From assembly GCF_964213995.1 (NCBI RefSeq), contig NC_135801.1, forward strand, positions 124,372,001-124,436,000: a stretch of 64,000 nt of DNA, written 5' to 3'. The translations under genes and the position numbers were made by a program. The notes under the pieces are model-generated. The model worked only from the letters and a program-made list of their open reading frames with translations. It was not told the origin of the DNA and did no database searches. The stretch comes from Mustelus asterias. Its lineage: Eukaryota. This document shows positions 1-27,562 of this stretch, one piece after another. Positions within the stretch are counted from its first letter, which is position 1; each line of letters starts with the position of its first letter.

Positions 1-1022
1 GAATTGAGAATCAGAAAACAACCAGAAATATGAAAAATTCTGATCATACCGGAAGCAAGGTTTAATCCAACACATGCGTGCCATAATATAATTTATCTTT
101 TCACAAGACACAAGAAATAGGAGGATGACTTAAATCATACAGCCCAACAAGCCCGTCCCACCATCCAAAACAACCATGGCTAATCTTGGGCTTCAACTCC
201 ACTTCTCAATCTTCTTCCCATTTCCCTCGATTCACTGAGAAACAAAAATCTGTCTATCTCAGCTTTAAATGCGATGAATGATGAAGCTTACACAAACCAA
301 TGGATACAGAATTGCAAAGATTCACAACCATGTGACTGAAGAAATTTCTCCTCATCTCAGACCTAAATATTCGCCCCTTTGCCATGAGAATGTGCCCTAT
401 GTTCAAGATTGCCCAGACAGCAGAACAGCACTTCTTTCCCCATCTGCACTGACATTCCACCCATACCAAACACATGACTCAGTATCGATTCCTCATCGCA
501 ATCCATCCTCCATTTCTCACTCTTTGTTCCACTGAACAAAATATTGTTTCACAGGCCTCCTCATGGCAAAAGCACACTGTACTGTTGATGTTTCCTATTT
601 GCACAATATGTAGACAAGGAAATAATATGAACCACATATCCTCATTTGCAACCTGAACAATGACACCAGATTACTGGAATATATCCGGGTGCATTTTTCT
701 GCTTTTGTCATTGCACCGAGAGACAGGTGCAACGCACAAGGGAAAAGGGAACCAAAGGAGTAACATTGGTCTTGTTTGGAAATGTGAAACGGCAGCCTGT
801 TTGACAACATGCTTCACTTTCTTTAACATTGAAATCAATAGAAACATTGTTGGCACAATGAAAATTGCTTTCACCCTGACCATATAAACAATGCAATTCT
901 TTTTACATATAAATAAAAGGCAATATAGAGAGAGATTGTTAATAAAATGACTTTCACAGAAATAATATGAACATCCTAAAACAAAAACTTAACGGGGTTG
1001 GCATCTCATCCTTCTCACTTAC

Positions 1023-1129
1023 AGCTTTGTGTCCTGCACCCTTTCAGGGAATATCCTGACACAACGTTGGGTAAATCATTTTTAACAGTCGGTTCCCCTG
1101 ACGCGGTCATCTTCAAATAACAATAAAAT
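1023..1129 (-). CDS. Apple A3, second half
   Basis: Third copy, splice sites intact. Confidence 0.92.
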
Positions 1130-4100
1130 CTGAAAGAAAACAAAAGGTAGAAGATAGTTAATGTGAAGTTTTGGAATGTAAAGTTAGTGCAGGATAGTTA
1201 AATCTGTGCTGCTGCTTTGGGAAAACATTGAGATTGGTTTTGTGGAGGGATGAGGTCAAAAGGTTATTCCTCATCCAAATCCATCTAATTCAATCCATTG
1301 GTTTGGAAACCACTTGGTCAAATCGCAGGGTAGAGGTTGGGATTTGATCACCAGTTATCTACAGAATGTCTAATCCCGGTCAAAATGTGTTTCTGTTGGT
1401 TGGAGTCATAACCTTGCAGTGATGAGGTGGAAATGATTCTTCATTCATTTTCAATCCAGAAATAGAGTATCACAGGGAAGGAGGTTGTTGCCCTGACCTG
1501 GGTTATCATAATCTCACCAAAGTTTATGAGCACTGCATTTAGATCTTCAAGGGACTGAATCCAAACATTGATTTTTACACTTTGGTTTTGTTCAATGATA
1601 CCTTGTTTACAATACATGTACTTTTTAACCAAATGCTCAAATTTAATTCACAGACCACAAACATTCCTCTGCTGATAACCTCATTCAGAATATCTGTTTA
1701 ATGGTTTAATGGCAACAAATTGTACTGGCATGATTTAGATTTTAATAGCATCAGGACAACAACAACAATCAATGATTGAGGGAATAGAAGAATGTTTGTT
1801 TACTGGACCATTGTGAGGAACTGCTCCAATTCCAATCAGAATGTCTCTTTCAGGATGGGATTTGCCTTGGACTAAACCTGATATAATCACTCCATATTCC
1901 AATTAAACGTCTGAATGAAGCAGTTACAGATTTACCTTCGGTTGTCGGTGTTCCAATCTCTTGTTAAAAAAGTGAAAAATTGACATTGGCTCTTCTCGGT
2001 ACACACTTTTTGACAGTAATTGGCGTCTGGAGCAAGGACCGATTCAATGTCATTTCCAGGAAAATCGATGTTTGATACCAGACCACATACACATCCTGCA
2101 ATAAAACACTTTTGTATCAATAATCTATTTGTCAGAAATGTTTATTAAAGGAGGTTAGGGTGGCTCCAATTCATCCCACTTCTATGTTCATACCCCATAG
2201 CACCGCAAACCTTTCCTTTCCAAGTATCCATCCATTCTGTTGTGAAATTCATTCTTGAATCCACTTCCTCCAAATTGTTAGGCTTTGCGATTCAGGTTGC
2301 AACATTTCACTGCATCATTTGTTTTACTCATGATTCCTCAGGTTCTTTTTACCAATCAGCAGAAATCTATGCCCTGTGGTTACCATCCCTTCTGCCAATG
2401 GACACATCAAAACCATTTCAGCTCCCGCTCACACACAGACACGCAACACATCTCCCCACCTTCTCCCAGGAGAAAAGAATTGCATTCAACTACAATTACG
2501 AAATGTGAAACCAGAAAAGAAATCAAAATGAACTTGCAAAGCAGTTAAATAATGGATCTTATATCTCATTTCAACTTCTCTGCCCCTCCCCATATTACTG
2601 ATCCTGTGACAGACCTAATATCGATCAATCTCCGACATGAATATAATCAATGATGGAGCGTCCACAACTCGATGAGGAAGAGAATTCCAAAAATTCACAA
2701 TTCTAGTTTCCGGGCCAGGAGAATCTTCCTCTGCTCCACTCACATTGTTGTTGGATGTTGACCACCAGAATCATTCAACACCTCCACTCGCTAACATAAA
2801 TAACGGCCAGAAATTATTGTGTGTGCTGTAGTTTCGTCCTCGTGAATTTCATTTAACAAATGTGTAAATTTATTTATAAGCAGTAATTTACACGCATTAC
2901 ACAGAGAAAAAGTCTTTCTCTTTTGAAAAATATGGACATTAATTACCTTGAATGAATTTATCAATTAACTATAATTAGCAATCAATTAGCAAGAAACTAC
3001 AAAGGGTCGTGAATGAAACACAGTCCGTCACGCAAACCGGCCTCCCGTCCGTTGACTCTGTCTACACTTCCCGCTGCCTCGGAAAAATAGCCAGCATAAT
3101 TAAGGACTCCACTTACCCCGAACATACTCTCCTCCATCTTCCGTCGGGAAAACGTTACAAAAGTCTGAGGTCACATACCAACTAACTCAAGAACACTTTC
3201 TTCCCTGCTGCTGTCAAACTTTTGAATGGACCTACCTCGTATTGAGTTGATCTTATTCGACACCCTAGCTATGACTGTAACACTACATTCTGCACTCTCT
3301 CTTTTCCTTTTCCATGAACGGTATGCTTTGTCTGCATAGCACGCCACAAACAATACTTTTCACTGTTTACTAATACATATGACAATAATAAATCAAATCA
3401 AATCAAATCAAATTAGCTCCCCTATCAGGTCACACAGTATCTCCTTTACTGGAGAACTGTTGCCAGAAGCAACAAAGATGGAGGAAAGTATTCTGCTGGA
3501 AATTTGTATTGATTGTCAGCTTCTACATCAAGGTTTTATCAATCAAAAGAAAAAAAACTCATTTTGGATTTACCAGAGTTATTGTGTCCACATTCCCTTA
3601 AAGAAAATCCAGATACAACATTCTGAAGAATATTTATTCTTGGTGGAGTTCCTCTTTCACTCTTTTTGCGGTAGCAGATGTAACTAGAAAGAATCACAGA
3701 AACGAGTGGTTTTGAATTATTTACAAAATCATTAACCGTCCTCTGATTCTGCAGCTATTCCCCATTGCTGATATTGGGTGAATTTAATTCTGAGTTGGTC
3801 CTGTTCACTAAGGAGTTGTATTTATTCCTCGCAGACACCCCCTGAGTTACAATAAACATTGAGACTAAAACAATTACAGATGAAGGATTTTAGGATGCGC
3901 TCATCTATTTGAAAGACTTTATTTCCTTGTCGAAACTAAGTTACTTGAATAACTGACTCACTGCTGTTTTTGATTGTGATATTCTCCTTTTACGAAGGTG
4001 AAAAATTGACAGTCAGGTTCCTCTGTACATTTTCTTTGACAACTGTGTTCATCCTCCACAACAGACTGATGAAAGTCATTTCCCGGAAAGTCCAAACCAT

Positions 4101-7100
4101 CATAAATGCTTTTAAAACAGGCTAAAAAACATGGGAAGAGGAATTGAGAACCAGAAAACAACCAGAAATATGAAAAATTCTGATCATACCGGAAGCAAGG
4201 TTTAATCCAACACATGCGTGCCATAATATAATTTATCTTTTCACAAGAACACAAGAAATAGGAGGATGACTTAAATCATACAGCCCAACAAGCCCGTTCC
4301 ACCATCCAATACAACCATGGCTAATCTTGGGCTTCAACTCCACTTCTCAATCTTCTTCACATTTCCCTCGATTCACTGAGAAACAAAAATCTGTCTATCT
4401 CAGCTTTAAATGCGATGAATGATGAAGCTTACACAAACCAATGGATACAGAATTGCAAAGATTCACAACCATGTGACTGAAGAAATTTCTCCTCATCTCA
4501 GACCTAAATATTCGCCCCTTTGCCCTGAGAATGTGCCCTATGTTCAAGATTGCCCAGACAGCAGAACAGCACTTCTTTCCCCCTCTGCACTGACATTCCA
4601 GCCATACCAAACACATGACTCAGTATCGATTCCTCATCGCAATCCATCCTCCATTTCTCACTCTTTGTTCCACTGAACTGTGAAATATTGTTTCACAGGC
4701 CTCCTCATGGCAAAAGCACACTGTACTGTTGATGTTTCCTATTTGCACAATATGTAGACAAGGAAATAATATGAACCACATCATAGAATCATAGAAACCC
4801 TACAGTGCAGAAGGAGGCCAGTCGGCCCATCGAGTCTGCACCGACCACAATCCCACCCAGGCCCTACCCGCTAACCCCTTTTTTTTTTACCCGCTAATTT
4901 ACCCGCTAATCCCTCTAACCTACGCTTCCCAGGACTCTGAGGGGCAATTTTTAGCCTGGCCAATCAACCTAACCCGCACATCTTTGGACTGTGGGAGGAA
5001 ACCGGAGCACCCGGAGGAAACCCACGCAGACACAAGGAGAATGTGCAAACTCCACACAGACAGTGACCCGAGCCGGGAATCGAACCCGAGACCCTGGAGC
5101 TGTGAAGCAGCAGTGCTAACCACTGTGCTTCCGTGTCGCCCCATATCCTAATTTGCAACCTGGACAATGTCACCAGATTACTGGAATATATTGCACCGAG
5201 AGATAGGTGCAACACACAAGGGAAAATGGAACCAAAGGAGTAACCTTGGTCTTGTTTGGAAATGTGAAACGGCAGCCTGTTTGACAACGTGCTTCACTTT
5301 CTTTAACATTGAAATCAATAGAAACATTGTTGGCACAATGAAAATTGCTCTCACCCTGACCATATAAACAATGCAATTCTTTTTACATATAAATAAAAGG
5401 CAATATAGAGAGGGATTGTTAATAAAATGACTTTCACAGAAATAATATGAACATCCTAAAACAAAAACTTAACGGGGTTGGCAACACATTCTTCTCACTT
5501 ACAGCTTTGTGTCCTGCACCCTTTCAGGGAATATCCTGACACAACGTTGGGTAAATTATTTTTAACAGTCGGTTCCCCTGACGCGGTCATCTTCAAATAA
5601 CAATAAAATCTGAAAGAAAACAAAAGGTAGAAGATAGTTAATGTGAAGTTTTGGAATGTAAAGTCAGTGCAGGATAGTTAAATCTGTGCTGCTGCTTTGG
5701 GAAAACATTGAGATTGGTTTTGTGGAGGGATGAGGTCAAAAGGTTATTCCTCATCCAAATCCATCTAATTCAATCCATTGGTTTGGAAACCACTTGGTCA
5801 AATCGCAGGGTAGAGATTGGGATTTGATCACCAGTTATCTACAGAATGTCTAATCCCGGTCAAAATGTGTTTCTGTTGGTTGGAGTCATAACCTTGCAGT
5901 GATGAGGTGGAAATTATTCTTCATTCATTTTCAATCCAGAAATAGAGTATCACAGGGAAGGATGTTGTTGCCCTGACCTGGGTTATCATAATCTCACCAA
6001 AGTTTATGAATACTGGCATTTAGATCTTCAAGGGACTGAATCCAAACATTGATTTTTACACTTTGGTTTTGTCCAATGATACCTTGTTTACAATACATGT
6101 ACTTTTTAACCAAATGCTCAAATTTAATTCACAGACCACAAACATTCCTCTGCTGATAACCTCATTCAGAATATCTGTTTCATGGTTTAATGGCAACAAA
6201 TTGTACTGGCATGATTTAGATTTTAATAGCATCCGGACAACAACAACAATCAATGATTGAGGGAATAGAAGAATGTTTGTTTACTGGACCATTGTGAAGA
6301 ACTGCTCCAATTCCAATCAGAATGTCTCTTTCAGGATGGGATTTGCCTTGGACTAAACCTGATATAATCACTCCATATTCCAGTTAAACATCTGAATGAA
6401 GCAGTTACAGATTTACCTTCGGTTGTCAGTGTTCCAATCTCTTGTTAAAAAAGTGAAAAATTGACATTGGCTCTTCTCGGTACACACTTTTTGACAGTAA
6501 TTGGCGTCTGGAGCAAGGACCAATTCAATGTCATTTCCAGGAAAATCAATGTTTGATACCAGACCACATACACATCCTGCAATAAAACACTTTTGTATCA
6601 ATAATCTATTTGTCAGAAATGTTTATTAAAGGAGGTTAGGGTGGCTCCAATTCATCCCACTTCTATGTTCATACCCCGTAGCACCGCAAACCTTTCCTTT
6701 CCAAGTATCCATCCATTCTGTTGTGAAATTCATTCTTGAATCCACTTCCTCCAAATTGTTAGGCTTTGCGATTCAGGTTGCAACATTTCACTGCATCATT
6801 AGCTTTACTCATGATTCCTCAGGTTCTTTTTACCAATCAGCAGAAATCTATGCCCTGTGGTTACCATCCCTTCTGCCAATGGGCACATCAAAACCATTTC
6901 AGCTCCCGCTCACACACAGACACACAACACATCTCCCCACCTTCTCCCAGGAGAAAAGAATTGCATTCAACTACAATTACGAAATGTGAAACCAGAAAAG
7001 AAATCAAAATGAACTTGCAAAGCAGTTAAATAATGGATCTTATATCTCATTTCAACTTCTCTGTCCCTCCCCATATTATTGATCCTGTGACAGATCAAAT

Positions 7101-10100
7101 ATCTATCAATCTCCAACATGAATATAATCAATGATGGAGCGTCCACAACTCGATGAGGAAGAAAATTCCAAAAATTCACAATTCTAGTTTCCGGGCCAGG
7201 AGAATCTTCCTCTGCTCCACTCACAATGTTGTTGGATGTTGACCACCAGAATCATTCAACACCTCCACTCGCTAACTTAAAAAACGGCCAGAAATTATTG
7301 TGCGTGCTGTAGTTTCGTCCTCGTGAATTTCATTTAACAAATGTGTAAATTTATTTATAAGCAGTAATTTACACGCATTACACAGAGAAAAAGTCTTTCT
7401 CTTTTGAAAAATATGGACATTATTTACATTGAATGAATTTATCAATTAACTACAATTAGTAATCAATTAGCAAGAAACTACAAAGGGTCGTGAATGAAAC
7501 ACAGTCCGTCACGCAAACCGGCCTCCCGTCCGTTAACTCTGTCTACACTTCCCGCTGCCTCGGAAAAATACCCAGCATAATTAAGGACTCCACTTACCCC
7601 GAACATACTCTCCTCCACCTCCTTCCATCGGGAAAAAGTTACAAAAGTCTGAGGTCACATACCAACTAATTCAAGAACAGTTTCTTCCCTGCTGCTGTCA
7701 AACTTTTGAATGGACCTACCTCGTATTGAGTTGATCTTATTCGACACCCTAGCTATGACTGTAACACTACATTCTGCACTCTCTCTTTTCCTTTTCTATG
7801 AACAGTGTGCTTTGTCTGCATAGTGCGCCACAAATAATACTTTTCACTGTTTACTAATACATATGACAATAATAAATGAAATCAAATCAAATCAAATTAG
7901 CTCCCTATCAGGTCTCACAGTATCTCCTTTACTGGAGAACTTTTGCCAGAAGCAACAAAGATGGAGGAAAGTATTCTGCTGGAAATTTGTATTGATTGTC
8001 AGCTTCTACATCAAGGTTTTATCACTCAAAAGAAAAAAAACTCATTTTGGATTTACCAGAGTTATTGTGTCCACATTCCCTTAAAGAAAATCCAGATACA
8101 ACATTCTGAAGAATATTTATTCTTGATGGAGTTCCTCTTTCACTCTTTTTGCGGTAGCAGATGTAACTAGAAAGAATCACAGAAACGAGTGGTTTTGAAT
8201 TATTTACAAAATCATTAACCGTCCTCGGATTCTGCAGCTATTCCCCATTGCTGATATTGGGTGAATTTAATTCTGAGTTGGTCCTGTTCACTAAGGAGTT
8301 GTATTTATTCCTCGCAGACACCCCCTGAGTTACAATAAACATTGAGACTAAAACGATTACAGGTGAAGGATTTTAGGATGCGCTCATCAATTTGAAAGAC
8401 TTTATTTCCTTGTCGAAACTAAGTTACTTGAATAACTGACTCACTGCTGTTTTTGATTGTGATATTCTCCTTTTACGAAGGTGAAAAATTGACAGTCAGG
8501 TTCCTCTGTACATTTTCTTTGACAACTGTGTTCATCCTCCACAACAGACTGATGAAAGTCATTTCCCGGAAAGTCCAAACCATCATAAATGCTTTTAAAA
8601 CAGGCTAAAAAACATGGGAAGAGGAATTGAGAACCAGAAAACAACCAGAAATATGAAAAATTCCGATCATACCGGAAGCAAGGTTTAATCCAACACATGC
8701 TTGCCAAAATATAATTTATCTTTTCACAAGAACACAAGAAATAGGAGGATGACTTAAATCATACAGCCCAACAAGCCCGTTCCACCATCCAATACAACCA
8801 TGGCTAATCTTGGGCTTCAACTCCACTTCTCAATCTTCTTCCCATTTCCCTCGATTCACTGAGAAACAAAAATCTGTCTATCTCAGCTTTAAATGCAATG
8901 AATGATGAAGCTTACACAAACCAATGGATACAGAATTGCAAAGATTCACAACCATGTGACTGAAGAAATTTCTCCTCATCTCAGACCTAAATATTCGCCC
9001 CTTTGCCCTGAGAATGTGCCCTATGTTCAAGATTGCCCAGACAGCAGAACAGCACTTCTTTCCCCCTCTGCACTGACATTCCAGCCATACCAAACACATG
9101 ACTCAGTATCGATTCCTCATCGCAATCCATCCTCCATTTCTCACTCTTTGTTCCACTGAACTGTGAAATATTGTTTCACAGGCCTCCTCATGGCAAAAGC
9201 ACACTGCACTGTTGATGTTTCCTTTTTGCACAATGTGAAGACAAGGAAATAATATGAACCACATCATAGAATCATAGAAACCCTACAGTGCAGAAGGAGG
9301 CCATTCGGCCCATCGAGTCTGCACCGACCACAATCCCACCCAGGCCCTACCCGCTAATCCCTTTTTTTTTTTACCCGCTAATTTACCCGCTAATCCCTCT
9401 AACCTACGCTTCCCAGGACTCTAAGGAGCAATTTTTAACCTTGCCAATCAACCTAACCCGCACATCTTTGGACTGTGGGAGGAAACCGGAGCACCCGGAG
9501 GAAACCCACGCAGACACGAGGAGAATGTGCAAACTCCACACAGACAGTGACCCGAGCCGGGAATCGAACCCGAGACCCTGGAGCTGTGAAGCAGCAGTGC
9601 TTACCACTGTGCTTCCGTGTCGCCCCATATCCTAATTTGCAACCTGGACAATGTCACCAGATTACTGGAATATATTGCACCGAGAGATAGGTGCAACACA
9701 CAAGGGAAAATGGAACCAAAGGAGTAACCTTGGTCTTGTTTGGAAATGTTAAACGGCAGCCTGTTTGACAACGTGCTTCACTTTCTTTAACATTGAAATC
9801 AATAGAAACATTGTTGGCACAATGAAAATTGCTCTCACCCTGACCATATAAACAATGCAATTCTTTTTACATATAAATAAAAGGCAATATAGAGAGGGAT
9901 TGTTAATAAAGTGTCTTTCACAGAAATAATCTGAACATCCTAAAACAAAAACTTAACAGGGTTGGCAACACATCCTTCTCACTTACAGCTTTGTGTCCTG
10001 CACCCTTTCAGGGAATATCCTGACACAACGTTGGGTAAATCATTTTTAACAGTCGGTTCCCCTGACGCGGTCATCTTCAAATAACAATAAAATCTGAAAG

Positions 10101-13100
10101 AAAACAAAAGGTAGAAGATAGTTAATGTGAAGTTTTGGAATGTAAAGTCAGTGCAGGATAGTTAAATCTGTGCTGCTGCATTGGGAAAACATTGAGATTG
10201 GTTTTGTGGAGGGATGAGGTCAAAAGGTTATTCCTCATCCAAATCCATCTAATTCAATCCATTGGTTTGGAAACCACTTGGTCAAATCGCAGGGTAGAGG
10301 TTGGGATTTGATCACCAGTTATCTACAGAATGTCTAATCCCGGTCAAAATGTGTTTCTGTTGGTTGGAGTCATAACCTTGCAGTGATGAGGTGGAAATTA
10401 TTCTTCATTCATTTTCAATCCAGAAATAGAGTATCACAGGGAAGGATGTTGTTGCCCTGACCTGGGTTATCATAATCTCACCAAAGTTTATGAATACTGG
10501 CATTTAGATCTTCAAGGGACTGAATCCAAACATTGATTTTTACACTTTGGTTTTGTCCAATGATACCTTGTTTACAATACACGTACTTTTTAACCAAATG
10601 CTCAAATTTAATTCACAGACCACAAACATTCCTCTGCTGGTAACCTCATTCAGAATATCTGTTTAATGGTTTAATGGCAACAAATTGTACTGGCATGATT
10701 TAGATTTTAATAGCATCAGGACAACAACAACAATCAATGATTGAGGGAATAGAAGAATGTTTGTTTACTGGACCATTGTGAGGAACTGCTCCAATTCCAA
10801 TCAGAATGTCTCTTTAAGGATGGGATTTGCCTTGGACTAAACAAAGAACAAAGAACAGTACAGCACAGGAAACAGGCCCTTCGGCCCTCCAAGCCTGTGC
10901 CGCTCCTTGGTCCAACTAGACCAATCGTTTGTATCCCTCCATTCCCAGGCTGCTCATGTGACTATCCAGGTAAGTCTTAAACGATGTCAGCGTGCCTGCC
11001 TCCACCACCCTACTTGGCAGCGCATTCCAGGCCCCCACCACCCTCTGTGTAAAAAACATCCCTCTAATATCTGAGTTATACTTCGCCCCTCTCACCTTGA
11101 GCCCGTGACCCTCGTGAACGTCACTTCTGATCTGGGAAAAAGCTTCCCACCGTTCACCCAATCTCTCCCCTTCATAATCTTGTACACCTCTGTTAGATCT
11201 CCCCTCATTCTCCGTCTTTCCAGGGAGAACAAGCCCAGTTTACCCAATCTCTCCTCATAGCTAAGACCCTCTATACCAGGCAACATCCTGGTAAACTTTC
11301 TCTGCACTCTCTCTAACGCCTCCACGTCCTTCTGGTAGTGCGGCGACCAGAACTGGACGCAGTACTCCAAATGTGGCCTAACCAGCATTCTATACAGCTG
11401 CATCATCAGACTCCAGCTTTTATACTCTATACCCCGTCCTATAAAGGCAAGCATACCATATGCCTTCTTCACCACCTTCTCCACCTGTGTTGCCACCTTC
11501 AAGGATTTGTGGACTTGCACACCTAGGTCCCTCTGTGTTTCTATACTCCTGATGACTCTGCCATTTATTGTATAACTCCTCCCTACATTATTTCTTCCAA
11601 AATGCATCACTTCGCATTTATCCGGATTAAACTCCATCTGCCACCTCTCCGCCCAATTTTCCAGCCTATCTATACCCTGCTGTATTGCCCGACAATGCTC
11701 TTCGCTATCCGCAAGTCCAACCTGATATAATCACTCCATATTCCAGTTAAACATCTGAATGAAGCAGTTACAGATTTACCTTCGGTTGTCAGTGTTCCAA
11801 TCTCTTGTTAAAAAGGTGAAAAATTGACATTGGCTCTTCTCGGTACACACTTTTTGACAGTAATTGGCGTCTGGAGCAAGGACCGATTCAATGTCATTTC
11901 CAGGAAAATCGATGTTTGATACCAGATCACATACACATCCTGCAATAAAATTTGATTAATTACTTTTGTTTCAATAATCTATTTATCAATAATGTTTATT
12001 AAAGGTGCTTGGGCCCAATTAGTCCCACATAAAGTTTAAAGTGTAATTATTATTGTCACAAGTAGGCTTGCATTAACACTTCAATGAGGTTACTCTGAAC
12101 ATCCCCTCGTCGCCACAGTCCGGCACCTGTTCGGGTCAATGCACCTAACCAGGACGTCTTTCGGACTGTGGGAGGAAACTGGAGCACCCGGAGGAAACCC
12201 ATCCAGACACGGGGAGAATGTGCAAACTCCACACAGACATTGACCAAAGCCGAAACTGAACCTGAGTCCCTGGCACTGTGAGGCAGCTTTGCTAACCATT
12301 ATGCCACGCCACCAGTGTGCTACCATGCCACCCCAAGTATGTTTCCACCACACTGTCAATTCTTCCTTTTCAAATATTTGTCTAGCTCCCTTTTTTGGAG
12401 GGTATTGTGGAATCTGCTTCCACCACCCAATGCAATCCAGATCACAACTCATTGCGTTATGTTTTTCTTTCTGTGATTCTTCTGTTCCTTTACTTTAATC
12501 CACGTCCTCTGGTTTCTGATCCCTCCGTCACTGGAAACATCAACATTTCCATATTCTCCTCAACACCTTTCAAGATATTAATAAATGATAAAACAAATAC
12601 AAAAATAACAAAATTATATTCTTCAGCTTGTAACAGGATAAAGAACAGGATGAACAGAAATAAATTTATTTGCAAAAACCGGGCTACCTCGGCCTTTACC
12701 TGGTCTGGCATACATGTGACTCCAGATCCACAGCAATGTGGTTGACTCTTAAATGCCCTCTGAAATGGCCTAGGAAGCCACTCAATCATATCAAACCATT
12801 AAAAGGTTTCAAAGGAACGAAACCAGATGGACCAGGGTGAACCTAACTCGAAACGTTGGCTCTATTCTCTCTCCACAGATGCTGTCAGACCTGCTGAGAT
12901 TTTCCAGCATTTTCTGCTTTTGTTACTTATAGTAAGAAGTTTAACAACACCAGGTTAAAGTCCAACAGGTTTATTTGGTAGCAAAAGCCACACAAGCTTT
13001 CGAGGCTCTGAGCCCCTTCTTCAGGTGAGTGGGAATTCTGTTCACAAACAGAACTTATAAGACACAGACTCAATTTACATGAATAATGGTTGGAATGCGA

Positions 13101-16100
13101 ATACTTACAACTAATCCAGTCTTTAAGAAACAAAACAATGGGAGTGGAGAGAGCATCAAGACAGGCTAAAAAGATGTGTATTGTCTCCAGACAAGACAGC
13201 CAGTGAAACTCTGCAGGTCCACGCAACTGTGGGAGTTACAAATAGTGTGACATAAATTCTGATTCTAGGATCGCATGATAAAGACTCAGGAGGAAAAAAG
13301 CAGAAATATTTATGTGAAATAGTGTGACATAAACCCAATATCCCGGTTGAGGCCGTCCTTGTGTGTGCGGAACCTGGCTATCAGTTTCTGCTCCGCGACT
13401 CTGCGCTGTCGTGTGTCGCGAAGGCCGCCTTGGAGAACGCTTACCCGAATATCAGAGGCCGAATGCCCGTGACCGCTGAAGTGCTCCCCAACAGGAAGAG
13501 AACAGTCTTGCCTGGTGATTGTCGAGCGGTGTTCATTCATCCGTTGTCGCAGCGTCTGCATAGTTTCCCCAATGTACCATGCCTCGGGACATCCTTTCTT
13601 GCAGCGTATCAGGTAGACAACGTTGGCCGAGTTGCAAGAGTATGTACCGTGTACCTGGTGGATGGTGTTCTCACGTGAGATGATGGCATCTGTGTCGATG
13701 ATCCGGCACGTCTTGCAGAGGTTGCTGTGGCAGGGTTGTGTGGTGTCTTGGTCACTGTTCTCCTGAAGGCTGGGTAGTTTGCTGCGGACAATGGTCTGTT
13801 TGAGGTTGTGCGGTTGTTTGAAGGCAAGAAGTGGGGGTGTGGGGATGGCCTTGGCGAGATGTTCGTCTTCATCAATGACATGTTGAAGGCTCCGGAGGAG
13901 ATGCCGTAGCTTCTCCGCTCCGGGGAAGTACTGGACAACGAAGGGTACTCTGTCCACTGTGTCCCGTGTTTGTCTTCTGAGGAGGTCGGTGCGGTTTTTC
14001 GCTGTGGCGCGTTGGAACTGTTGATCAATGAGTCTAGCGCCATATCCTGTTCTTATGAGGGCATCTTTCAGCGTCTGGAGGTGTCTGTTGCGATCCTCCT
14101 CATCCGAGCAGATCCTGTGTATACGGAGGGCTTGTCCGTAGGGGATGGCTTCTTTAACGTGTTTAGGGTGGAAGCTGGAGAAGTGGAGCATCGTGAGGTT
14201 ATCCGTGGGCTTGCGGTACAGTGAGGTGCTGAGGTGACCGTCCTTAATGGAGATGCGCGTGTCCAAGAATGCAACCGATTCCGGAGAGTAGTCTATGGTG
14301 AGCCTGATGGTGGGATGGAACTTGTTGATGTCATCATAGAGTTGTTTCAGTGATTGTTCACCATGAGTCCAAAGGAAGAAAATGTCATCGATGTATCTAG
14401 TGTATAGCACCGGTTGAAGGTCCCGTGCGGTGAAGAAGTCTTGTTCGAACCTGTGCATGAAGATGTTGGCATATTGAGGTGCAAATTTGGTCCCCATGGC
14501 TGTTCCGTGTGTCTGGATGAAGAACTGGTTGTTGAAGGTGAAGATATTGTGGTCCAGGATGAAGCGGATGAGATGTAAAATTGCATCTGGAAACTGGCAG
14601 TTGTTGGCGCTGAGCACTGAGGCCGTTGCAGCAATGCCATCGTCATGGGGGATGCTGGTGTAGAGTGCTGAGACATCCATTGTGACGAGGAGCGCTCCTG
14701 GTTCAACTGCTCCATGTGTGCCGAGTTTCTGTAGGAAGTCCGTCGTGTCGCGACAAAAGCTGGGGGTTCTTTGTACAATGGGTTTCAGGATGCCCTCGAC
14801 ATAGCCGGAGAGGTTCTCGCACAGGGTTACTCGCACTTTGTTACTTATACCAGAGATTGTCCAAAATCCTCTGTCCAACTGTTCAAGAGCCTGCAGATCA
14901 AGACATGGATTCTGCAGTCATCAATGATCTGCCATTTGCCTCAGATATAAACCTTTGCTTGACCTTTTCCTGAAACAAACGTGCCATAATCATCATCAAA
15001 ATATTCTTTAAAAATTACAGAAACATATAGGACTGGATTTGCTGCCCACTGCTGGTTTGAAGGCACTGGTGCATGTAAAATCAAGTGAGTGGCCTGATCA
15101 TCACCTAGTGACCCCCTGTGGCATCGGGCAGCCTGCCCAACAATGAGGCTGTTGAGGCCCAATTAAAGGCTTCACTCACTGCCACTGTCACTGCTTCACC
15201 CTGAGGATGTAACCAGGTTGGGAGAGGTCCATGTTGACCAGCCAGCCCAGCAGCTGCTCACCCTTTTGAACCGCTGCAATCCATGTGGTGCAATTACACC
15301 CACATTGCTGTTAGGAAGGAAATTGAAGGGATGTAACCCAGTGAAGGAATGGTAATAATGTCCCAAGTCAGAACGTTATGTGACTTGTATGTGCTGGCCA
15401 TATCCTTCTAGGTCATGGGTTTGGAAAGTGTTGTTAAAGGAGCCTTGGGATTTCCAGCAGTGCAGCACGTAAATGGTACATACTGCTGCGACTGCATTGC
15501 TGGTGGAGAGACTGAATGTTAAAGTTGCTCAATGAAGTGTCAATCAAGTGGGTTGCTTTGTCCTGGATGTTTCCAAGCTTCTTGAGTGTTGGAACTTCAT
15601 TCATCCAGATAAGTGGAGAGTATTCCATCACTCTCCTGACTTGGGCCTTGTCGATGGTGGACAGCTACTCAATGCAGGATTCCCAGTTCTGACCTGCTCT
15701 TGTAGCCACAGTTTTATGTGGCTCGTCCAGTTCAGTATCCGGGATGTTGATCATGAGGGATTTAGCAATTGTAAAGACATTGATTGTCAAGGGAAGATGG
15801 TCTGATGTCCTCTTATTGGAGATGGTCATTCCCTAACACTTGTATGCTGCAAATGTAACTTGTCACTTATCAATACAAGCCCGGACATTTTCCAGGTCTT
15901 CCTGCGTATGGGCAGAGACTACTTTGGTATCTGAGGAGTTATGAACGCTGCTGAAAATCATGCAATCATCAGCAAACATCCCCATTTCCAACCTGATGAT
16001 GAAAGGAAGATGGTTGTGCCTGAGGAACTAATGCAGCAATGTCCAGGGATTGAGATGATTGATCTTCAACAACTACAACCATCTTCCTTTGTGCGAGGTA

Positions 16101-17788
16101 TGACTCCAATCAGAAGAGAGTTTCCTCCTTGCTTCCTTCTGATATTACTACACTCCATCAAATGCTGCCTTGATGTCAAGAACAGTCACTCTCACTTTGC
16201 CTCGAGTTCAGCTCTTTTGTCCATATTTGGACCAAGGCTGCAATGAGGTCAGAAGCTGAATGGACCTGGTGGAACCCAAACTAAACATCAGTGAGCAGGT
16301 TATTGTGGAGTGAGGGCCACTTGGTAGCACGCGCAACAACTCTTCTAATCACTTTGTTGATAATCAACTGTGAACTGATGGGACGGTAACTGACTGGGTT
16401 GAATTTATCCTGCTTTTTGTGGACGTGCATTACATGTCTTATTTTATTAAATTATTATGGGGGTTAATAGCCAAATAGTCTCTGGAAGAGCCAAGAATTC
16501 TTTGAAGTGATGGTCCTCCCAGCAACATTATCAATTATGAATGCATTAACAGAGCTAATCCTTTTATGAGTCTATGCTCTCAGCCAAGTTTCATTTTGCT
16601 TTGTTGACAAAACTGGGGAAAAGGGAATACTTTGCCCGAATAACAGCTTTATGATGCTATAATAAGTTACTTATCTGTGATTTTTTTTGCCAATAGCACA
16701 ATATTGAGTTGCGCAAGATAAAGATATGTCAAGTGCTTATAGCTTCTGTTACTGGCACTTTTATTGGGTTGCAACAGTAGCAGTGTTAAGAAAGTTATGA
16801 ATGGGTGGTTTATTAGCAGTTCGACACATGCCATTGTTACTGTAATGTTCATTGGTTATGCACAGGATGCATTTTCATGTATTTTCATGAAAGTGCCATG
16901 ACTTGACATGAAGGTTAAGAGGGGCTCTTGGGGGTGGGTGGAAGGCATGAGTTGGAACAGAACTGGCATAGGAGTGAATGGGAATTTGAGGCAATGCAAA
17001 GGGTGAGAGCTGGGAAACCTAATATATAAATATAAACAGCTGGGACAAAATCTCAGAGTACCAAGACAGCCTTTTACATAGTTCACCTCGGCACTCAGCT
17101 ACCCCGTAGCCACCTTTGATCTGTTTCCAGGGCTGGTAGGCCTGGCTCCAAACATCATCCACCTCCATTCCCTCTGCCCCACCATCTGGAGCCAAAATTA
17201 GGTCTGGTGGGGCACTTCTTACCAAGCCAGGTCTGCCGAGTCAGGAAATACCCTGACTTGAGCTACCCACCTCAGTACTGAAAACCTCTCCGATAGGATG
17301 AAATATATTTAGGACAGAGCAAGTACAATTTTTTATTTTTACTCAGAATTTTTGATGTACCACCAGAATTAGTGCTTGTCAACTTTTAAGATAAGGTTAT
17401 GCAGCTTGTTGAAGGAAAGTGAAATAAAGCACGCAGGACAAGGCCAGGCAGTGAAGGACTGAACTGCTGTTCATGTGAATCATTATGGACTGATTGGGTA
17501 GAATGGAATTCTCCATGTAATTCTATGAAATTATGATCACTAAGTATATATGTCATGCTCAGTGCCAAACCCCTACTAAAGTTTGATGGTCATCAAATTT
17601 CATGAACAGTCAAACCAGTTTCTAAAATGCTCAATGTTGAATTAATCAGTTCTGCTGTTTTATATATATATATATAGAATCTTAATACACAAAATAAAAG
17701 CAGAGAAAAGGACCTTACCATCACTATTCTGTGAAAGAAATTCAGGTATGCAGCCCACAAAGCAAACAAGATATAGAACTTTCTTCAT
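1023..17788 (-). CDS. Multi-apple (PAN) domain secreted protein, KLKB1/F11-like, 3'-partial: join(17719-17788,11780-11939,9987-10093,8445-8604,8057-8166,6417-6576,5503-5609,3962-4121,3574-3683,1936-2095,1023-1129); continues beyond left edge
   Basis: 11 exons, all GT-AG, splice into one uninterrupted frame. Apple motifs C..DFPGND..C-x3-C-x5-CQFFTF..CY(L/R)K..VSG(Y/F)SL..C. Each apple is split over two exons (160 + 107/110 bp) as in KLKB1/F11. Directly downstream of CYP4V2 on the same strand. Confidence 0.9.
1936..2095 (-). CDS. Apple A3, first half
   Basis: Third copy; inside ORF 1932..2120. Confidence 0.92.
2988..3412 (+). mobile_element. Rex1/Babar-like 3'-end fragment (duplicated with the unit at about 7471-7896)
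   Basis: Homologous to 47140-47556, same (AATCA)n tail. Confidence 0.8.
3574..3683 (-). CDS. Apple B2, second half
   Basis: Copy of 8057-8166 (TPPR instead of TPSR), splice sites intact. Confidence 0.9.
3962..4121 (-). CDS. Apple B2, first half
   Basis: Copy of 8445-8604; inside ORF 3958..4254. Confidence 0.92.
4781..5142 (-). mobile_element. tRNA-derived HE1/V-SINE-type SINE
   Basis: A/B-box head GGCACAGTGGTTAGC..GGTTCGATTCC, V-core GTGGGTTTCCTCCGGGTGCTCCGGTTTCCTCCCACAGTCCAAAGA, CR1-like tail. Confidence 0.9.
5503..5609 (-). CDS. Apple A2, second half
   Basis: Copy of 9987-10093 (KNNL instead of KNDL), splice sites intact. Confidence 0.92.
6417..6576 (-). CDS. Apple A2, first half (GCVCGL...IELVLAPD...)
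   Basis: Near-identical copy of 11780-11939; inside ORF 6413..6601. Confidence 0.92.
8057..8166 (-). CDS. Apple B1, second half: HYICYRKKSERGTPSRINILQNVVSGFSLRECGHNNS
   Basis: 110 bp, ttctag acceptor, G|GTAAAT donor, VSGFSL..C motif. Confidence 0.9.
8445..8604 (-). CDS. Apple B1, first half: SCFKSIYDGLDFPGNDFHQSVVEDEHSCQRKCTEEPDCQFFTFVKGEYHNQKQ
   Basis: 160 bp, ttttag acceptor, GTGAGT donor; inside ORF 8441..8737. Confidence 0.92.
9264..9626 (-). mobile_element. HE1/V-SINE-type SINE at the equivalent site in the neighbouring repeat unit
   Basis: Same insertion point as 4781-5142. Confidence 0.9.
9987..10093 (-). CDS. Apple A1, second half: RFYCYLKMTASGEPTVKNDLPNVVSGYSLKGCRTQS
   Basis: 107 bp, tttcag acceptor, GTAAGT donor, CYLK and VSGYSL..C motifs. 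Confidence 0.92.
10843..11718 (-). mobile_element. CR1 LINE 3' fragment present only in the first repeat unit
   Basis: ORFs ..LVRPHLEYCVQFWSP..LERVQR..; (GTTCTTT)n tail; empty site GGACTAAACCTG in the other two units. Confidence 0.92.
11780..11939 (-). CDS. Apple A1, first half: GCVCDLVSNIDFPGNDIESVLAPDANYCQKVCTEKSQCQFFTFLTRDWNTDNR
   Basis: 160 bp, ttgcag acceptor, AG|GTAAAT donor, apple Cys pattern. Confidence 0.92.
12031..12333 (-). mobile_element. V-SINE variant with a different tail
   Basis: tRNA-like head and V-core; tail shared with the fragment at about 52650-52800. Confidence 0.8.
12932..14836 (-). mobile_element. Penelope-like retroelement, 5'-truncated, in intron 1 of the apple gene
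   Basis: ORF 13310..14878 identical to the other copies from TLCENLSG onward; 13-bp TSD TTTGTTACTTATA at 12919-12931 and 14837-14849. Confidence 0.95.
15265..16430 (-). mobile_element. Old LINE (CR1/L2-like) fragment
   Basis: MEYSPLIWM..TLKKLGNIQDKA..LI; heavily decayed. Confidence 0.7.
17719..17788 (-). CDS. Apple gene first coding exon (signal peptide) MKKVLYLVCFVGCIPEFLSQNSD-G
   Basis: ATG in AGGATGA context, basic N-terminus plus short hydrophobic core, ends G|GTAAGG (phase 1), in frame with the next exon. Below the ORF-track length cutoff. Confidence 0.75.
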
Positions 17789-22509: not shown

Positions 22510-24919
22510 TAAACACAGTAAGAAGTTTAACAACACCAGGTTAAAGTCCAACAGGTTTATTTGGTAGCAAAAGCCACACAAGCTTTCGAGGCTCTGAGCC
22601 CCTTCTTCAGGTGAGTGGGAATTCTGTTCACAAACAGAACTTATAAGACACAGACTCAATTTACATGAATAATGGTTGGAATGCGAATACTTACAACTAA
22701 TCCAGTCTTTAAGAAACAAAACAATGGGAGTGGAGAGAGCATCAAGACAGGCTAAAAAGATGTGTATTGTCTCCAGACAAGACAGCCAGTGAAACTCTGC
22801 AGGTCCACGCAACTGTGGGAGTTACAAATAGTGTGACATAAATTCTGATTCTAGGATCGCATGATAAAGACTCAGGAGGAAAAAAGCAGAAATATTTATG
22901 TGAAATAGTGTGACATAAACCCAATATCCCGGTTGAGGCCGTCCTTGTGTGTGCGGAACCTGGCTATCAGTTTCTGCTCCGCGACTCTGCGCTGTCGTGT
23001 GTCGCGAAGGCCGCCTTGGAGAACGCTTACCCGAATATCAGAGGCCGAATGCCCGTGACCGCTGAAGTGCTCCCCAACAGGAAGAGAACAGTCTTGCCTG
23101 GTGATTGTCGAGCGGTGTTCATTCATCCGTTGTCGCAGCGTCTGCATAGTTTCCCCAATGTACCATGCCTCGGGACATCCTTTCTTGCAGCGTATCAGGT
23201 AGACAACGTTGGCCGAGTTGCAAGAGTATGTACCGTGTACCTGGTGGATGGTGTTCTCACGTGAGATGATGGCATCTGTGTCGATGATCCGGCACGTCTT
23301 GCAGAGGTTGCTGTGGCAGGGTTGTGTGGTGTCTTGGTCACTGTTCTCCTGAAGGCTGGGTAGTTTGCTGCGGACAATGGTCTGTTTGAGGTTGTGCGGT
23401 TGTTTGAAGGCAAGAAGTGGGGGTGTGGGGATGGCCTTGGCGAGATGTTCGTCTTCATCAATGACATGTTGAAGGCTCCGGAGGAGATGCCGTAGCTTCT
23501 CCGCTCCGGGGAAGTACTGGACAACGAAGGGTACTCTGTCCACTGTGTCCCGTGTTTGTCTTCTGAGGAGGTCGGTGCGGTTTTTCGCTGTGGCGCGTTG
23601 GAACTGTTGATCAATGAGTCTAGCGCCATATCCTGTTCTTATGAGGGCATCTTTCAGCGTCTGGAGGTGTCTGTTGCGATCCTCCTCATCCGAGCAGATC
23701 CTGTGTATACGGAGGGCTTGTCCGTAGGGGATGGCTTCTTTAACGTGTTTAGGGTGGAAGCTGGAGAAGTGGAGCATCGTGAGGTTATCCGTGGGCTTGC
23801 GGTACAGTGAGGTGCTGAGGTGACCGTCCTTAATGGAGATGCGCGTGTCCAAGAATGCAACCGATTCCGGAGAGTAGTCTATGGTGAGCCTGATGGTGGG
23901 ATGGAACTTGTTGATGTCATCATAGAGTTGTTTCAGTGATTGTTCACCATGAGTCCAAAGGAAGAAAATGTCATCGATGTATCTAGTGTATAGCACCGGT
24001 TGAAGGTCCCGTGCGGTGAAGAAGTCTTGTTCGAACCTGTGCATGAAGATGTTGGCATATTGAGGTGCAAATTTGGTCCCCATGGCTGTTCCGTGTGTCT
24101 GGATGAAGAACTGGTTGTTGAAGGTGAAGATATTGTGGTCCAGGATGAAGCGGATGAGATGTAAAATTGCATCTGGAAACTGGCAGTTGTTGGCGCTGAG
24201 CACTGAGGCCGTTGCAGCAATGCCATCGTCATGGGGGATGCTGGTGTAGAGTGCTGAGACATCCATTGTGACGAGGAGCGCTCCTGGTTCAACTGCTCCA
24301 TGTGTGCCGAGTTTCTGTAGGAAGTCCGTCGTGTCGCGACAAAAGCTGGGGGTTCTTTGTACAATGGGTTTCAGGATGCCCTCGACATAGCCGGAGAGGT
24401 TCTCGCACAGGGTCCCATTGCCCGATACGATGGGACGGCCGGGTGTGTTTGCCTTGTGTATCTTCGGGAGGCAGTAGAGATCTCCAACGCGGGGAGTACG
24501 TGGGATGAGAGCACGGAGGGTGTTCTGAAGGTCCGGATCAAAGGTCTTGATCAGAGTGTTGAGTTGACGGGTGTGTTCTTTGGTCGGATCTGCAGGTAAC
24601 TGTCTGTAGTGTTCCTCGTTGTTGAGTTGTCGGTACACTTCTTTGCAGTAATCCGTTCTGTTCAGTATGACGATGGCCCCTCCTTTGTCTGCTGGTTTGA
24701 TGACAATGTTGCGGTTGGTCTTGAGAGCGTGGATGGCGTTACGTTGTGCTTGGGTGATGTTCGGGGCTGTCTTGTGAGTGCGGCTGATGAATTTGGTGTT
24801 GACGCACCTCCTGACGGCTTGGGCATACATGTCAAGTCGAGGGCAGCGGCCTTCCGGAGGAGTCCAATTCGACTCTTTCCTCTTCGGATGCACTGCGGAT
24901 CTCTCTGTCGGCTGTTCCA
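22510..24919 (-). mobile_element. Penelope-like retroelement (RT + GIY-YIG), 5'-truncated; left arm of palindrome
   Basis: ORF 22896..24893 with IKPADKGG, PGRPIVS, MDVSALYTSIP, GTAMG, RYIDD and C-terminal VVYLIRC..WYIGET..R (GIY-YIG). Confidence 0.95.
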
Positions 24920-25126: not shown

Positions 25127-27562
25127 TGGAACAGCCGACAGAGAGATCCGCAGTGCATCCGAAGAGGAAAGAGTCGAATTGGACTCCTCCGGAAGGCCGC
25201 TGCCCTCGACTTGACATGTATGCCCAAGCCGTCAGGAGGTGCGTCAACACCAAATTCATCAGCCGCACTCACAAGACAGCCCCGAACATCACCCAAGCAC
25301 AACGTAACGCCATCCACGCTCTCAAGACCAACCGCAACATTGTCATCAAACCAGCAGACAAAGGAGGGGCCATCGTCATACTGAACAGAACGGATTACTG
25401 CAAAGAAGTGTACCGACAACTCAACAACGAGGAACACTACAGACAGTTACCTGCAGATCCGACCAAAGAACACACCCGTCAACTCAACACTCTGATCAAG
25501 ACCTTTGATCCGGACCTTCAGAACACCCTCCGTGCTCTCATCCCACGTACTCCCCGCGTTGGAGATCTCTACTGCCTCCCGAAGATACACAAGGCAAACA
25601 CACCCGGCCGTCCCATCGTATCGGGCAATGGGACCCTGTGCGAGAACCTCTCCGGCTATGTCGAGGGCATCCTGAAACCCATTGTACAAAGAACCCCCAG
25701 CTTTTGTCGCGACACGACGGACTTCCTACAGAAACTCGGCACACATGGAGCAGTTGAACCAGGAGCGCTCCTCGTCACAATGGATGTCTCAGCACTCTAC
25801 ACCAGCATCCCCCATGACGATGGCATTGCTGCAACGGCCTCAGTGCTCAGCGCCAACAACTGCCAGTTTCCAGATGCAATTTTACATCTCATCCGCTTCA
25901 TCCTGGACCACAATATCTTCACCTTCAACAACCAGTTCTTCATCCAGACACACGGAACAGCCATGGGGACCAAATTTGCACCTCAATATGCCAACATCTT
26001 CATGCACAGGTTCGAACAAGACTTCTTCACCGCACGGGACCTTCAACCGGTGCTATACACTAGATACATCGATGACATTTTCTTCCTTTGGACTCATGGT
26101 GAACAATCACTGAAACAACTCTATGATGACATCAACAAGTTCCATCCCACCATCAGGCTCACCATAGACTACTCTCCGGAATCGGTTGCATTCTTGGACA
26201 CGCGCATCTCCATTAAGGACGGTCACCTCAGCACCTCACTGTACCGCAAGCCCACGGATAACCTCACGATGCTCCACTTCTCCAGCTTCCACCCTAAACA
26301 CGTTAAAGAAGCCATCCCCTACGGACAAGCCCTCCGTATACACAGGATCTGCTCGGATGAGGAGGATCGCAACAGACACCTCCAGACGCTGAAAGATGCC
26401 CTCATAAGAACAGGATATGGCGCTAGACTCATTGATCAACAGTTCCAACGCGCCACAGCGAAAAACCGCACCGACCTCCTCAGAAGACAAACACGGGACA
26501 CAGTGGACAGAGTACCCTTCGTTGTCCAGTACTTCCCCGGAGCGGAGAAGCTACGGCATCTCCTCCGGAGCCTTCAACATGTCATTGATGAAGACGAACA
26601 TCTCGCCAAGGCCATCCCCACACCCCCACTTCTTGCCTTCAAACAACCGCACAACCTCAAACAGACCATTGTCCGCAGCAAACTACCCAGCCTTCAGGAG
26701 AACAGTGACCAAGACACCACACAACCCTGCCACAGCAACCTCTGCAAGACGTGCCGGATCATCGACACAGATGCCATCATCTCACGTGAGAACACCATCC
26801 ACCAGGTACACGGTACATACTCTTGCAACTCGGCCAACGTTGTCTACCTGATACGCTGCAAGAAAGGATGTCCCGAGGCATGGTACATTGGGGAAACTAT
26901 GCAGACGCTGCGACAACGGATGAATGAACACCGCTCGACAATCACCAGGCAAGACTGTTCTCTTCCTGTTGGGGAGCACTTCAGCGGTCACGGGCATTCG
27001 GCCTCTGATATTCGGGTAAGCGTTCTCCAAGGCGGCCTTCGCGACACACGACAGCGCAGAGTCGCGGAGCAGAAACTGATAGCCAGGTTCCGCACACACA
27101 AGGACGGCCTCAACCGGGATATTGGGTTTATGTCACACTATTTCACATAAATATTTCTGCTTTTTTCCTCCTGAGTCTTTATCATGCGATCCTAGAATCA
27201 GAATTTATGTCACACTATTTGTAACTCCCACAGTTGCGTGGACCTGCAGAGTTTCACTGGCTGTCTTGTCTGGAGACAATACACATCTTTTTAGCCTGTC
27301 TTGATGCTCTCTCCACTCCCATTGTTTTGTTTCTTAAAGACTGGATTAGTTGTAAGTATTCGCATTCCAACCATTATTCATGTAAATTGAGTCTGTGTCT
27401 TATAAGTTCTGTTTGTGAACAGAATTCCCACTCACCTGAAGAAGGGGCTCAGAGCCTCGAAAGCTTGTGTGGCTTTTGCTACCAAATAAACCTGTTGGAC
27501 TTTAACCTGGTGTTGTTAAACTTCTTACTGTGTTTACCCCAGTCCAACGCCGGCATCTCCAC
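25127..27562 (+). mobile_element. Penelope-like retroelement, 5'-truncated; right arm of palindrome, with extra 3' tail (27537-27562)
   Basis: Same protein as the left arm (ORF ends 27150); 14-bp TSD ACCCTTCTTAAACA at 22502-22515 and 27563-27576. Confidence 0.95.
27433..27469 (+). ncRNA. Minimal type-I hammerhead ribozyme motif in the PLE 3' UTR
   Basis: CAC-CUGAAGA-A-[GGGGCU cag AGCCUC]-GAAA-GC-UU-GUG: catalytic core, stem II, palindromic AAGCUU stem III, CAC/GUG stem I. Identical minus-strand copies at about 12990-13030, 22577-22613 and 43445-43482. Confidence 0.75.

Follow-up and report, generated by a model that had tools for sequence, protein, structure and literature searches.

A gene encoding a long series of apple domains and, after these, a trypsin domain lies on the minus strand of Mustelus asterias contig C1. 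Its 5′ part falls within positions 124372001–124436000, the 64,000-base stretch analyzed here and called the window. A further 200 kb to the left of the window was added, and the resulting 264 kb, which contain no N, were searched by tblastn. The gene has 43 exons and extends over 88.5 kb, between window base 17788 and a point ~70.7 kb to the left of the window (Table 1). It encodes, in order, a signal peptide, seven tandem pairs of apples A and B, four core apples C-D-E-F, which are diverged relative to the seven A and seven B copies by tblastn, an activation site, and a trypsin domain; a 13.4-kb intron lies between the array and the core.

The gene and its predicted protein

Eighteen apples are recognized by their cysteine pattern, and 17 PAN_1 stretches and one trypsin domain pass in Pfam. 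A search with the first A exon returned an uncharacterized RefSeq model of Mustelus asterias, 100% identical; RefSeq XP_078074106.1 ("uncharacterized protein LOC144497169," 1,885 amino acids) maps to the 43 exons as an identical protein. The predicted product is a secreted zymogen whose catalytic triad is complete. The activation residue Arg1645 is followed by Val-Phe-Gly-Gly; His57, Asp102, Ser195, Asp189, Gly216, and Gly226 are all present, as are the cysteines for the bond between heavy and light chains; and the last apple contains the extra cysteine pair typical of prekallikrein (PK), Cys321-Cys326, with the same spacing as in PK. For the mature protein, a mass of ~213 kDa is computed, and each B apple is followed by one N-glycosylation sequon. 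The gene structure and orthology, taken alone, can in our opinion be held with high confidence.

Two features of the protein should be noted separately. Each A apple (for example, that encoded from 11939–11780) contains a seventh, unpaired cysteine two residues past the first, which most relatives lack and which could cross-link units or chains. In a second RefSeq isoform, of 1,794 amino acids, exon 2 of D and exon 1 of E are left out, which results in a hybrid apple and 17 domains.

The first-pass annotation, made from the window, described a signal-peptide exon and ten apple exons spliced in frame as SP-A-B-A-B-A and expected a sixth domain just outside. Both statements hold. The 11 exons of the window join into 1,411 nt, 470 codons with zero stops, identical to residues 1–470 of the RefSeq protein; the first exon of the next B apple begins 20 bases left of base 1, and window bases 1–20 match the unit-2 intron sequence found 20 bases ahead of the corresponding unit-2 B exon. 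Self-comparison of the window reveals a tandem repeat of ~4.1–4.5 kb with 92–98% identity over bases 1–12000. The array does continue beyond five apples, but the total is 18 (14 in the array and four in the core), not six; the earlier count was low because the window ends inside the array. Of the two architectures that had been suggested, a poly-apple protease and a protease-less poly-apple plasma protein, the former is the right one, as the left flank contains the Arg-Val activation site and a trypsin domain with its His, Asp, and Ser.

Table 1. Coding and neighboring features at the locus (window positions unless prefixed with C1)
Feature	Position	Strand	Evidence
Signal-peptide exon, first coding exon, 70 nt	17788-17719	minus	only signal-peptide-like match at E<=0.001 in 264 kb searched
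Unit 1 apple A exon 1	11939-11780	minus	tblastn + splice sites
Unit 1 apple A exon 2	10093-9987	minus	tblastn + splice sites
Unit 1 apple B exon 1	8604-8445	minus	tblastn + splice sites
Unit 1 apple B exon 2	8166-8057	minus	tblastn + splice sites
Unit 2 apple A exon 1	6576-6417	minus	tblastn + splice sites
Unit 2 apple A exon 2	5609-5503	minus	tblastn + splice sites
Unit 2 apple B exon 1	4121-3962	minus	tblastn + splice sites + spliced contig
Unit 2 apple B exon 2	3683-3574	minus	tblastn + splice sites + spliced contig
Unit 3 apple A exon 1	2095-1936	minus	tblastn + splice sites + spliced contig
Unit 3 apple A exon 2	1129-1023	minus	tblastn + splice sites + spliced contig
Unit 3 intron, continues past left edge of window	1..1022	minus	
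Rest of array, 18 exons	C1:124371981 down to 124349414	minus	
Core apples C-F, 8 exons	C1:124335988 down to 124310925	minus	
Activation site, trypsin domain, and last coding exon, 6 exons	C1:124309625 down to 124301288	minus	
CYP4V2-like cytochrome P450, upstream neighbor	exons ~63500 down to 31160	minus	tblastn; 5′ end unmapped

The tandem array

All 28 array exons have an AG acceptor and a GT donor and are free of stops, and transposons are confined to the introns of the array. Exons of units 1–6 are ~99% identical, differing by 2–7 of 537 nt, while those of unit 7 differ by 20–23. Introns diverge by 0–3.7% among units 1–6; in unit 7, introns 2 and 3 bear no relation to those of the other units. 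The units are nevertheless individually recognizable: private substitutions number 7 in unit 2, 10 in unit 3, 21 in unit 4, and 13 in unit 5 (units 1 and 6 were left out of this count because misaligned insertions inflate it). The copies are further distinguished by their insertions: ~340 bp within the second intron in units 1, 2, and 4, ~880 bp in unit 1, and a 4.1-kb long interspersed nuclear element (LINE) in unit 6. Variants shared among units fall into incompatible, mosaic patterns, as expected from recombination between units.

The LINE lies in the last intron of unit 6 (C1 about 124,353,100–124,358,700), has open frames of 335 and 964 codons, and is presumably a young copy of the CR1 type.

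Contigs of sequencing run X3, which may represent the assembled animal itself, match the unit 2/4 type (288/288) and unit 3 (502/502) exactly. A 515-nt contig of run X15, which we guess to be RNA, joins the two A exons and the two B exons (A1-A2-B1-B2) at the predicted splice sites with 5 letters differing. Runs X16 and X17 covered only repeats.

Orthology to KLKB1 and F11

The best matches in PDB are human plasma kallikrein (9e-167) and factor XI (FXI; 4e-165), aligned over approximately residues 1279–1883; the domains of PK and FXI rank above those of TMPRSS2, enteropeptidase, and hepsin. In a tree of 42 protease domains, all nine shark and ray rows form one clade (100/99), which is sister to 13 PK and 4 F11 rows of lobe-finned fish and tetrapods, with support of 99/97 against an outgroup of 16 TMPRSS9-like rows. 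When two catfish rows are added, the group of sharks with lobe-finned fish and tetrapods is retained at 90/88, with a weak root. The core apples C, D, E, and F are nearest to apples A1, A2, A3, and A4, respectively, of gibbon and coelacanth PK. Moreover, A is nearest to C (61%) and B to D (55%), A and C resembling A1/A3 and B and D resembling A2, which identifies the array as a multiplied copy of the first apple pair. Matches to the apple region of coelacanth PK, among the 70 scored candidates, all fall in this gene, with no second PK-type apple locus among them; this number is a floor and not a proof of a single locus.

The neighboring genes agree with this assignment. The human gene order is CYP4V2-KLKB1-F11-MTNR1A-FAT1. 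In the shark, a P450 gene lies upstream on the same strand, and CYP4V2 accounts for 2 of the 4 named relatives among 10 looked up. MTNR1A (best PDB match MT1, 2e-163) is found ~430 kb downstream, and a cadherin gene ~620–750 kb downstream, both on the opposite strand; the cadherin, called FAT-type from two long exons with open frames of 1,107 and 1,428 codons, is not established as FAT1. By synteny and trees, then, the gene is judged to be the elasmobranch orthologue of KLKB1/F11. The first-pass annotation had taken it for a chondrichthyan relative of KLKB1/F11, syntenic with these genes but non-canonical in architecture. Synteny, trees, and gene structure bear this out, the shark and ray protease domains grouping with PK/F11 against the TMPRSS9-like outgroup.

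A Penelope-like retroelement stretch, with a reverse transcriptase and a weak GIY-YIG match, is present in the window as three 100% identical copies (12931–14827, 22517–24413, and 25633–27529). Two of the copies belong to a perfect inverted repeat of 2,410 bp (22510–24919 and 25127–27536) with a 790-codon open frame, which is either a very recent insertion or an assembly feature.

Apple number and protease state in relatives

Six apples with a protease are found in models from Heptranchias, Cetorhinus, Pristis, Leucoraja, Rhinoraja, and Amblyraja (isoform X2; isoform X1 has seven), and Scyliorhinus torazame has 16 apples with a protease. Chiloscyllium punctatum and Stegostoma have 14–17 apples without a protease, in addition to a separate 7-apple Stegostoma model, and C. 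plagiosum has six, also without a protease. Several of the models from sharks and rays carry the RefSeq name "plasma kallikrein-like" or "coagulation factor XI-like." Six apples are the likely ancestral elasmobranch state, as judged from these sequences; the Heterodontus and Mobula models look mis-spliced and were excluded from the ancestral counts. Array copies mostly cluster by species in the apple comparison, A copies being 98% identical within this shark, 85% identical to those of catshark, and 77% to those of bamboo shark. Since identity is higher within than between species, the arrays either expanded separately in carpet and ground sharks or have been homogenized since.

The protease is absent from all five whole orectolobiform models examined. 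Four carpet-shark models stop one residue past a B apple; since B exons and the last coding exon are both of phase 1, a deletion of core and protease would give such ends. Apples 3–4 and the protease of orectolobiforms or chimaeras were found neither among the best 120 of 8,000 scored matches nor among the best 120 of 270 hits, which does not amount to proof of protease loss in carpet sharks because short protease-only fragments would rank below these lists.

In sharks that have the protease, the triad, Asp189, the activation Arg, and the PK-type cysteine pair are intact in five of five rows. All seven skate and ray rows differ from those of sharks at the activation site, triad, or S1 pocket: Asp102 is replaced by Asn in one, the activation Arg by His in two, and Asp189 by Glu in five. 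In three near-identical skate rows, Ser195 is replaced by Leu, and both Cys122 and Cys191 are missing; these proteins are predicted to be six-apple pseudo-proteases, and the proteases of skates and rays as a whole are, from their substitutions, apparently decaying. Two Logan skate contigs (2,710 and 2,711 nt) contain the whole 821-amino-acid signal-A-B-C-D-E-F-protease frame, and a complete six-apple frame in contigs of 2.7 kb implies spliced transcripts and the use of the same B-to-C junction in skates. The extra cysteines of apple 4 are both absent from coelacanth, sawfish, and devil ray rows and present in sharks, skates, and lungfish; this patchy absence suggests that the pair is likely ancestral and was lost several times.

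Proposed function and mechanism

We suggest that the repeated apple pairs are high-avidity binders of sugars on microbes or cells, which bring the protease of a secreted ~213-kDa zymogen to that surface. From the analogy with related apple proteins, this is in our view rather probable, and the protein is likely a many-handed sugar-binding sensor rather than a clotting factor. The flathead kalliklectin FHL, which has four apples and lacks a protease, binds mannose in a calcium-dependent manner, and human kallikrein agglutinates red cells (PMC3219417). In catfish, a kalliklectin has eight apples, and a plasma protein of the PK/FXI-like kind shows lectin activity (PMC10499198). The binding part outlasts the protease, carpet-shark models being apple-only and skate and ray proteases altered, which counts for the lectin reading.

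Trees and models suggest that an added copy of the first apple pair brought the number of apples to six in an elasmobranch ancestor. The two-domain cassette, with its phase-1 intron borders, would then have been multiplied and homogenized, most likely by unequal crossing-over and gene conversion. By comparison with relatives such as the teleost kalliklectins, the array may act as a lectin, seven A-B copies raising the avidity for repeating surface sugars while the protease is held there. Activation would involve a cut after Arg1645 by a trypsin-like protease, presumably outside the contact system of factor XII and high-molecular-weight (HMW) kininogen, as relatives again suggest. An AlphaFold model of the six-apple bamboo-shark array has six apple folds in no settled arrangement (mean predicted local distance difference test score, pLDDT, 65; predicted template modeling score, pTM, 0.32).

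More broadly, we tentatively propose that the PK/F11 gene is as old as jawed vertebrates and may have begun as a lectin-protease sensor of pathogens; that the first apple pair of sharks would be a cassette that evolves in concert and tunes avidity by its number (1 to 8 or more copies); and that carpet sharks have lost the protease and that of skates and rays is decaying. Several points weigh against the sugar-binding mechanism suggested above. The outgroup of the protease tree is narrow, and the apple counts of relatives are those of automatic models. Protease models of a caecilian (1,053 amino acids, 8 apples) and a catfish (1,754 amino acids, 16 apples) were set aside as likely fusions of neighboring genes. 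Glu for Asp189 alone, as in Amblyraja, need not inactivate the protease. Among the 15 of 37 joints listed, that of B exon 2 with the next A exon 1 is absent, and none of the contigs listed links one unit to another or the array to the core; the basis for the full-length product is the splice sites together with the RefSeq model. Finally, codon differences among units 1–6 comprise 35 silent and 34 amino-acid-changing ones over 15 non-independent unit pairs, and differences this few fit recent drift as well as selection.

Alternative explanations

An ordinary kinin-releasing or clotting protease, the extra apple pairs of which are exosites for kininogen, factor IX, or an inhibitor, is in our opinion unlikely. 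Such a role would agree with the catalytic and activation residues and the PK-type cysteine pair kept in all five shark rows, and the amplified B apple resembles A2, which in mammals binds kininogen. A last exon on contig C3 (about 26,728,700–26,728,960, plus strand), which we take to be kininogen-like from its motifs, encodes an unusual kinin-like stretch with an Arg just ahead of it and the closing Arg missing. However, this exon, found in a search that took in parts of the cystatin clusters only, encodes just ~80 residues with a short acidic tail and lacks the His-rich domain D5 (D5 and D6 of HMW kininogen are defined in PMC3835742). Surveys list neither factor XII nor HMW kininogen for the whale shark (PMC10499198), and plasma of the bullhead shark does not respond to the reagent of the activated partial thromboplastin time (aPTT) assay (bioRxiv 10.64898/2026.10.23.761479). 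The lack of a His-rich domain and of an aPTT-type response makes a contact role of the mammalian type less likely, and a core clotting function is difficult to reconcile with a protease that decays in rays and skates.

The number of A-B pairs might instead drift without benefit, the cassette being prone to unequal crossing-over and its copies being passengers on a six-apple protease. Units 1–6 are indeed young, given their intron divergence, and mosaic; amino-acid changes are about as many as silent ones; and models of basking shark and sevengill shark contain one pair only. Yet every array exon is intact, with transposons only in introns, and catshark, bamboo shark, and zebra shark likewise have long arrays, as do, with other apples as building blocks, catfish and conger. 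We consider pure drift distinctly unlikely.

The 18-apple model would be an annotation fusion if the locus made two separate products, the array yielding a poly-apple lectin with no protease and the core a shorter apple-protease. The long intron that parts array from core, the apple-only orectolobiform models, and the catfish 16-apple protease model, which has the length of two adjacent genes annotated elsewhere and an inner second N-terminus-like stretch, could all be taken in this sense. This explanation is nonetheless highly unlikely: the 264 kb searched contain no second signal-peptide exon, the B exon of unit 7 has an end like that of the only B in six-apple relatives and is spliced to C in phase, and the two skate contigs carry a whole frame across the same junction.

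That one or two units were written repeatedly by the assembler, as the near identity of the unit 1–6 exons might suggest, is scarcely credible in view of the private substitutions in units 2–5, the unit-specific insertions, the unrelated introns of unit 7, the exact match of X3 contigs to two unit types (even though X3 may be the assembled animal), the 264 kb without N, and the long arrays in three other shark genera.

Relation to earlier surveys

Surveys of 2013–2022 dated PK to lobe-finned fish and treated four apples as fixed. The coelacanth was reported as the earliest vertebrate with klkb1 (PMC3835742), and klkb1 was found in coelacanth and lungfish (PMC9368803). PK and FXI were considered absent from cartilaginous fish, of which one chimaera was sampled (PMC9643190), and the whale shark is marked as lacking PK in a table of PMC10499198, taken from Ponczek et al. 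2020. The premise of the first-pass annotation that PK had not been found in cartilaginous fish thus holds for these surveys but not for the later literature, as the same review credits Tsutsui et al. 2023 with apple and protease genes in a few cartilaginous fish (PMC10499198); these genes probably include orthologues of the one described here. Therefore, with presence in sharks partly in print and the model already in RefSeq, presence alone is not new. A full-text literature search, a weak one in which subscription papers are thinly covered, found no description of shark forms with six apples or with an amplified array; the ground state of six apples, the expandable pair, and the recurrent decay of the protease appear to be undescribed. 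Kallikrein and factor XI are not mentioned in the main text, as far as available, of a nurse-shark plasma proteome (PMC9207270), nor in the available part of a shark skin-mucus proteome (PMC10707392).

If the protease has been lost in carpet sharks, including the surveyed whale shark, and is decaying in skates and rays, this would account for the verdict that cartilaginous fish lack the gene. A same-locus orthologue in sharks and rays would place the origin of PK in the first jawed vertebrates, earlier than HMW kininogen and factor XII, and one may then ask what the original role of the PK protease was. The lectin-first idea becomes directly testable on a natural series of apple numbers (6, 16, and 18) and of proteases that look active, are decayed, or are missing. 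The Cys321-Cys326 pair, described as a feature of tetrapods and lungfish, is present in sharks.

Comparison with known systems

Canonical PK consists of exactly four apples and one trypsin domain (PMC3835742, PMC9643190), and the Cys321-Cys326 pair is described as one of its features (PMC10499198). The shark gene shares with PK (KLKB1; PDB 6o1g) the locus between CYP4V2 and MTNR1A/FAT, and its last four apples and trypsin domain align with PK end to end. The activation Arg, triad, Asp189, cysteines joining heavy and light chains, and apple-4 cysteine pair are all shared, as is the division of each apple over two exons. The shark protein differs in having 18 apples (six in most relatives) where PK has four, in the Val-Phe-Gly-Gly that follows the cut in place of Ile-Val-Gly-Gly, and in the unpaired seventh cysteine of its A apples; no His-rich kininogen partner was found in the parts of the cystatin clusters covered in the shark genome.

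Factor XI (F11; PDB 5i25) has the same core architecture, with matches of 4e-165 to 5e-164, but this mammalian duplicate forms its own clade in the protease tree. The shark protein retains both cysteines of the last apple, the second of which is Gly in F11 (Gly326), so that the dimer signature of F11 is lacking, and the residue before the activation Arg is Ala in the shark and Pro in F11.

The teleost kalliklectins, with four apples in flathead and eight in channel catfish, are secreted apple arrays akin to the heavy chain of PK/FXI, and their unit number varies by tandem repeat (8–12 in catfish models, 6–10 in conger). Unlike the shark protein, they have no protease, a condition found also in the orectolobiform models. 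Neither shark A nor shark B groups with their repeats, and mannose binding is a result obtained on kalliklectin. The PK/FXI-like proteins of catfish and "a few cartilaginous fish" combine apples with a serine protease, and the catfish protein has lectin activity (PMC10499198); that protein is, however, only ~70 kDa, with four apples. The shark protein is thus not a canonical PK, not factor XI, and not a kalliklectin; by analogy, it likely works like a kalliklectin joined to a kallikrein.

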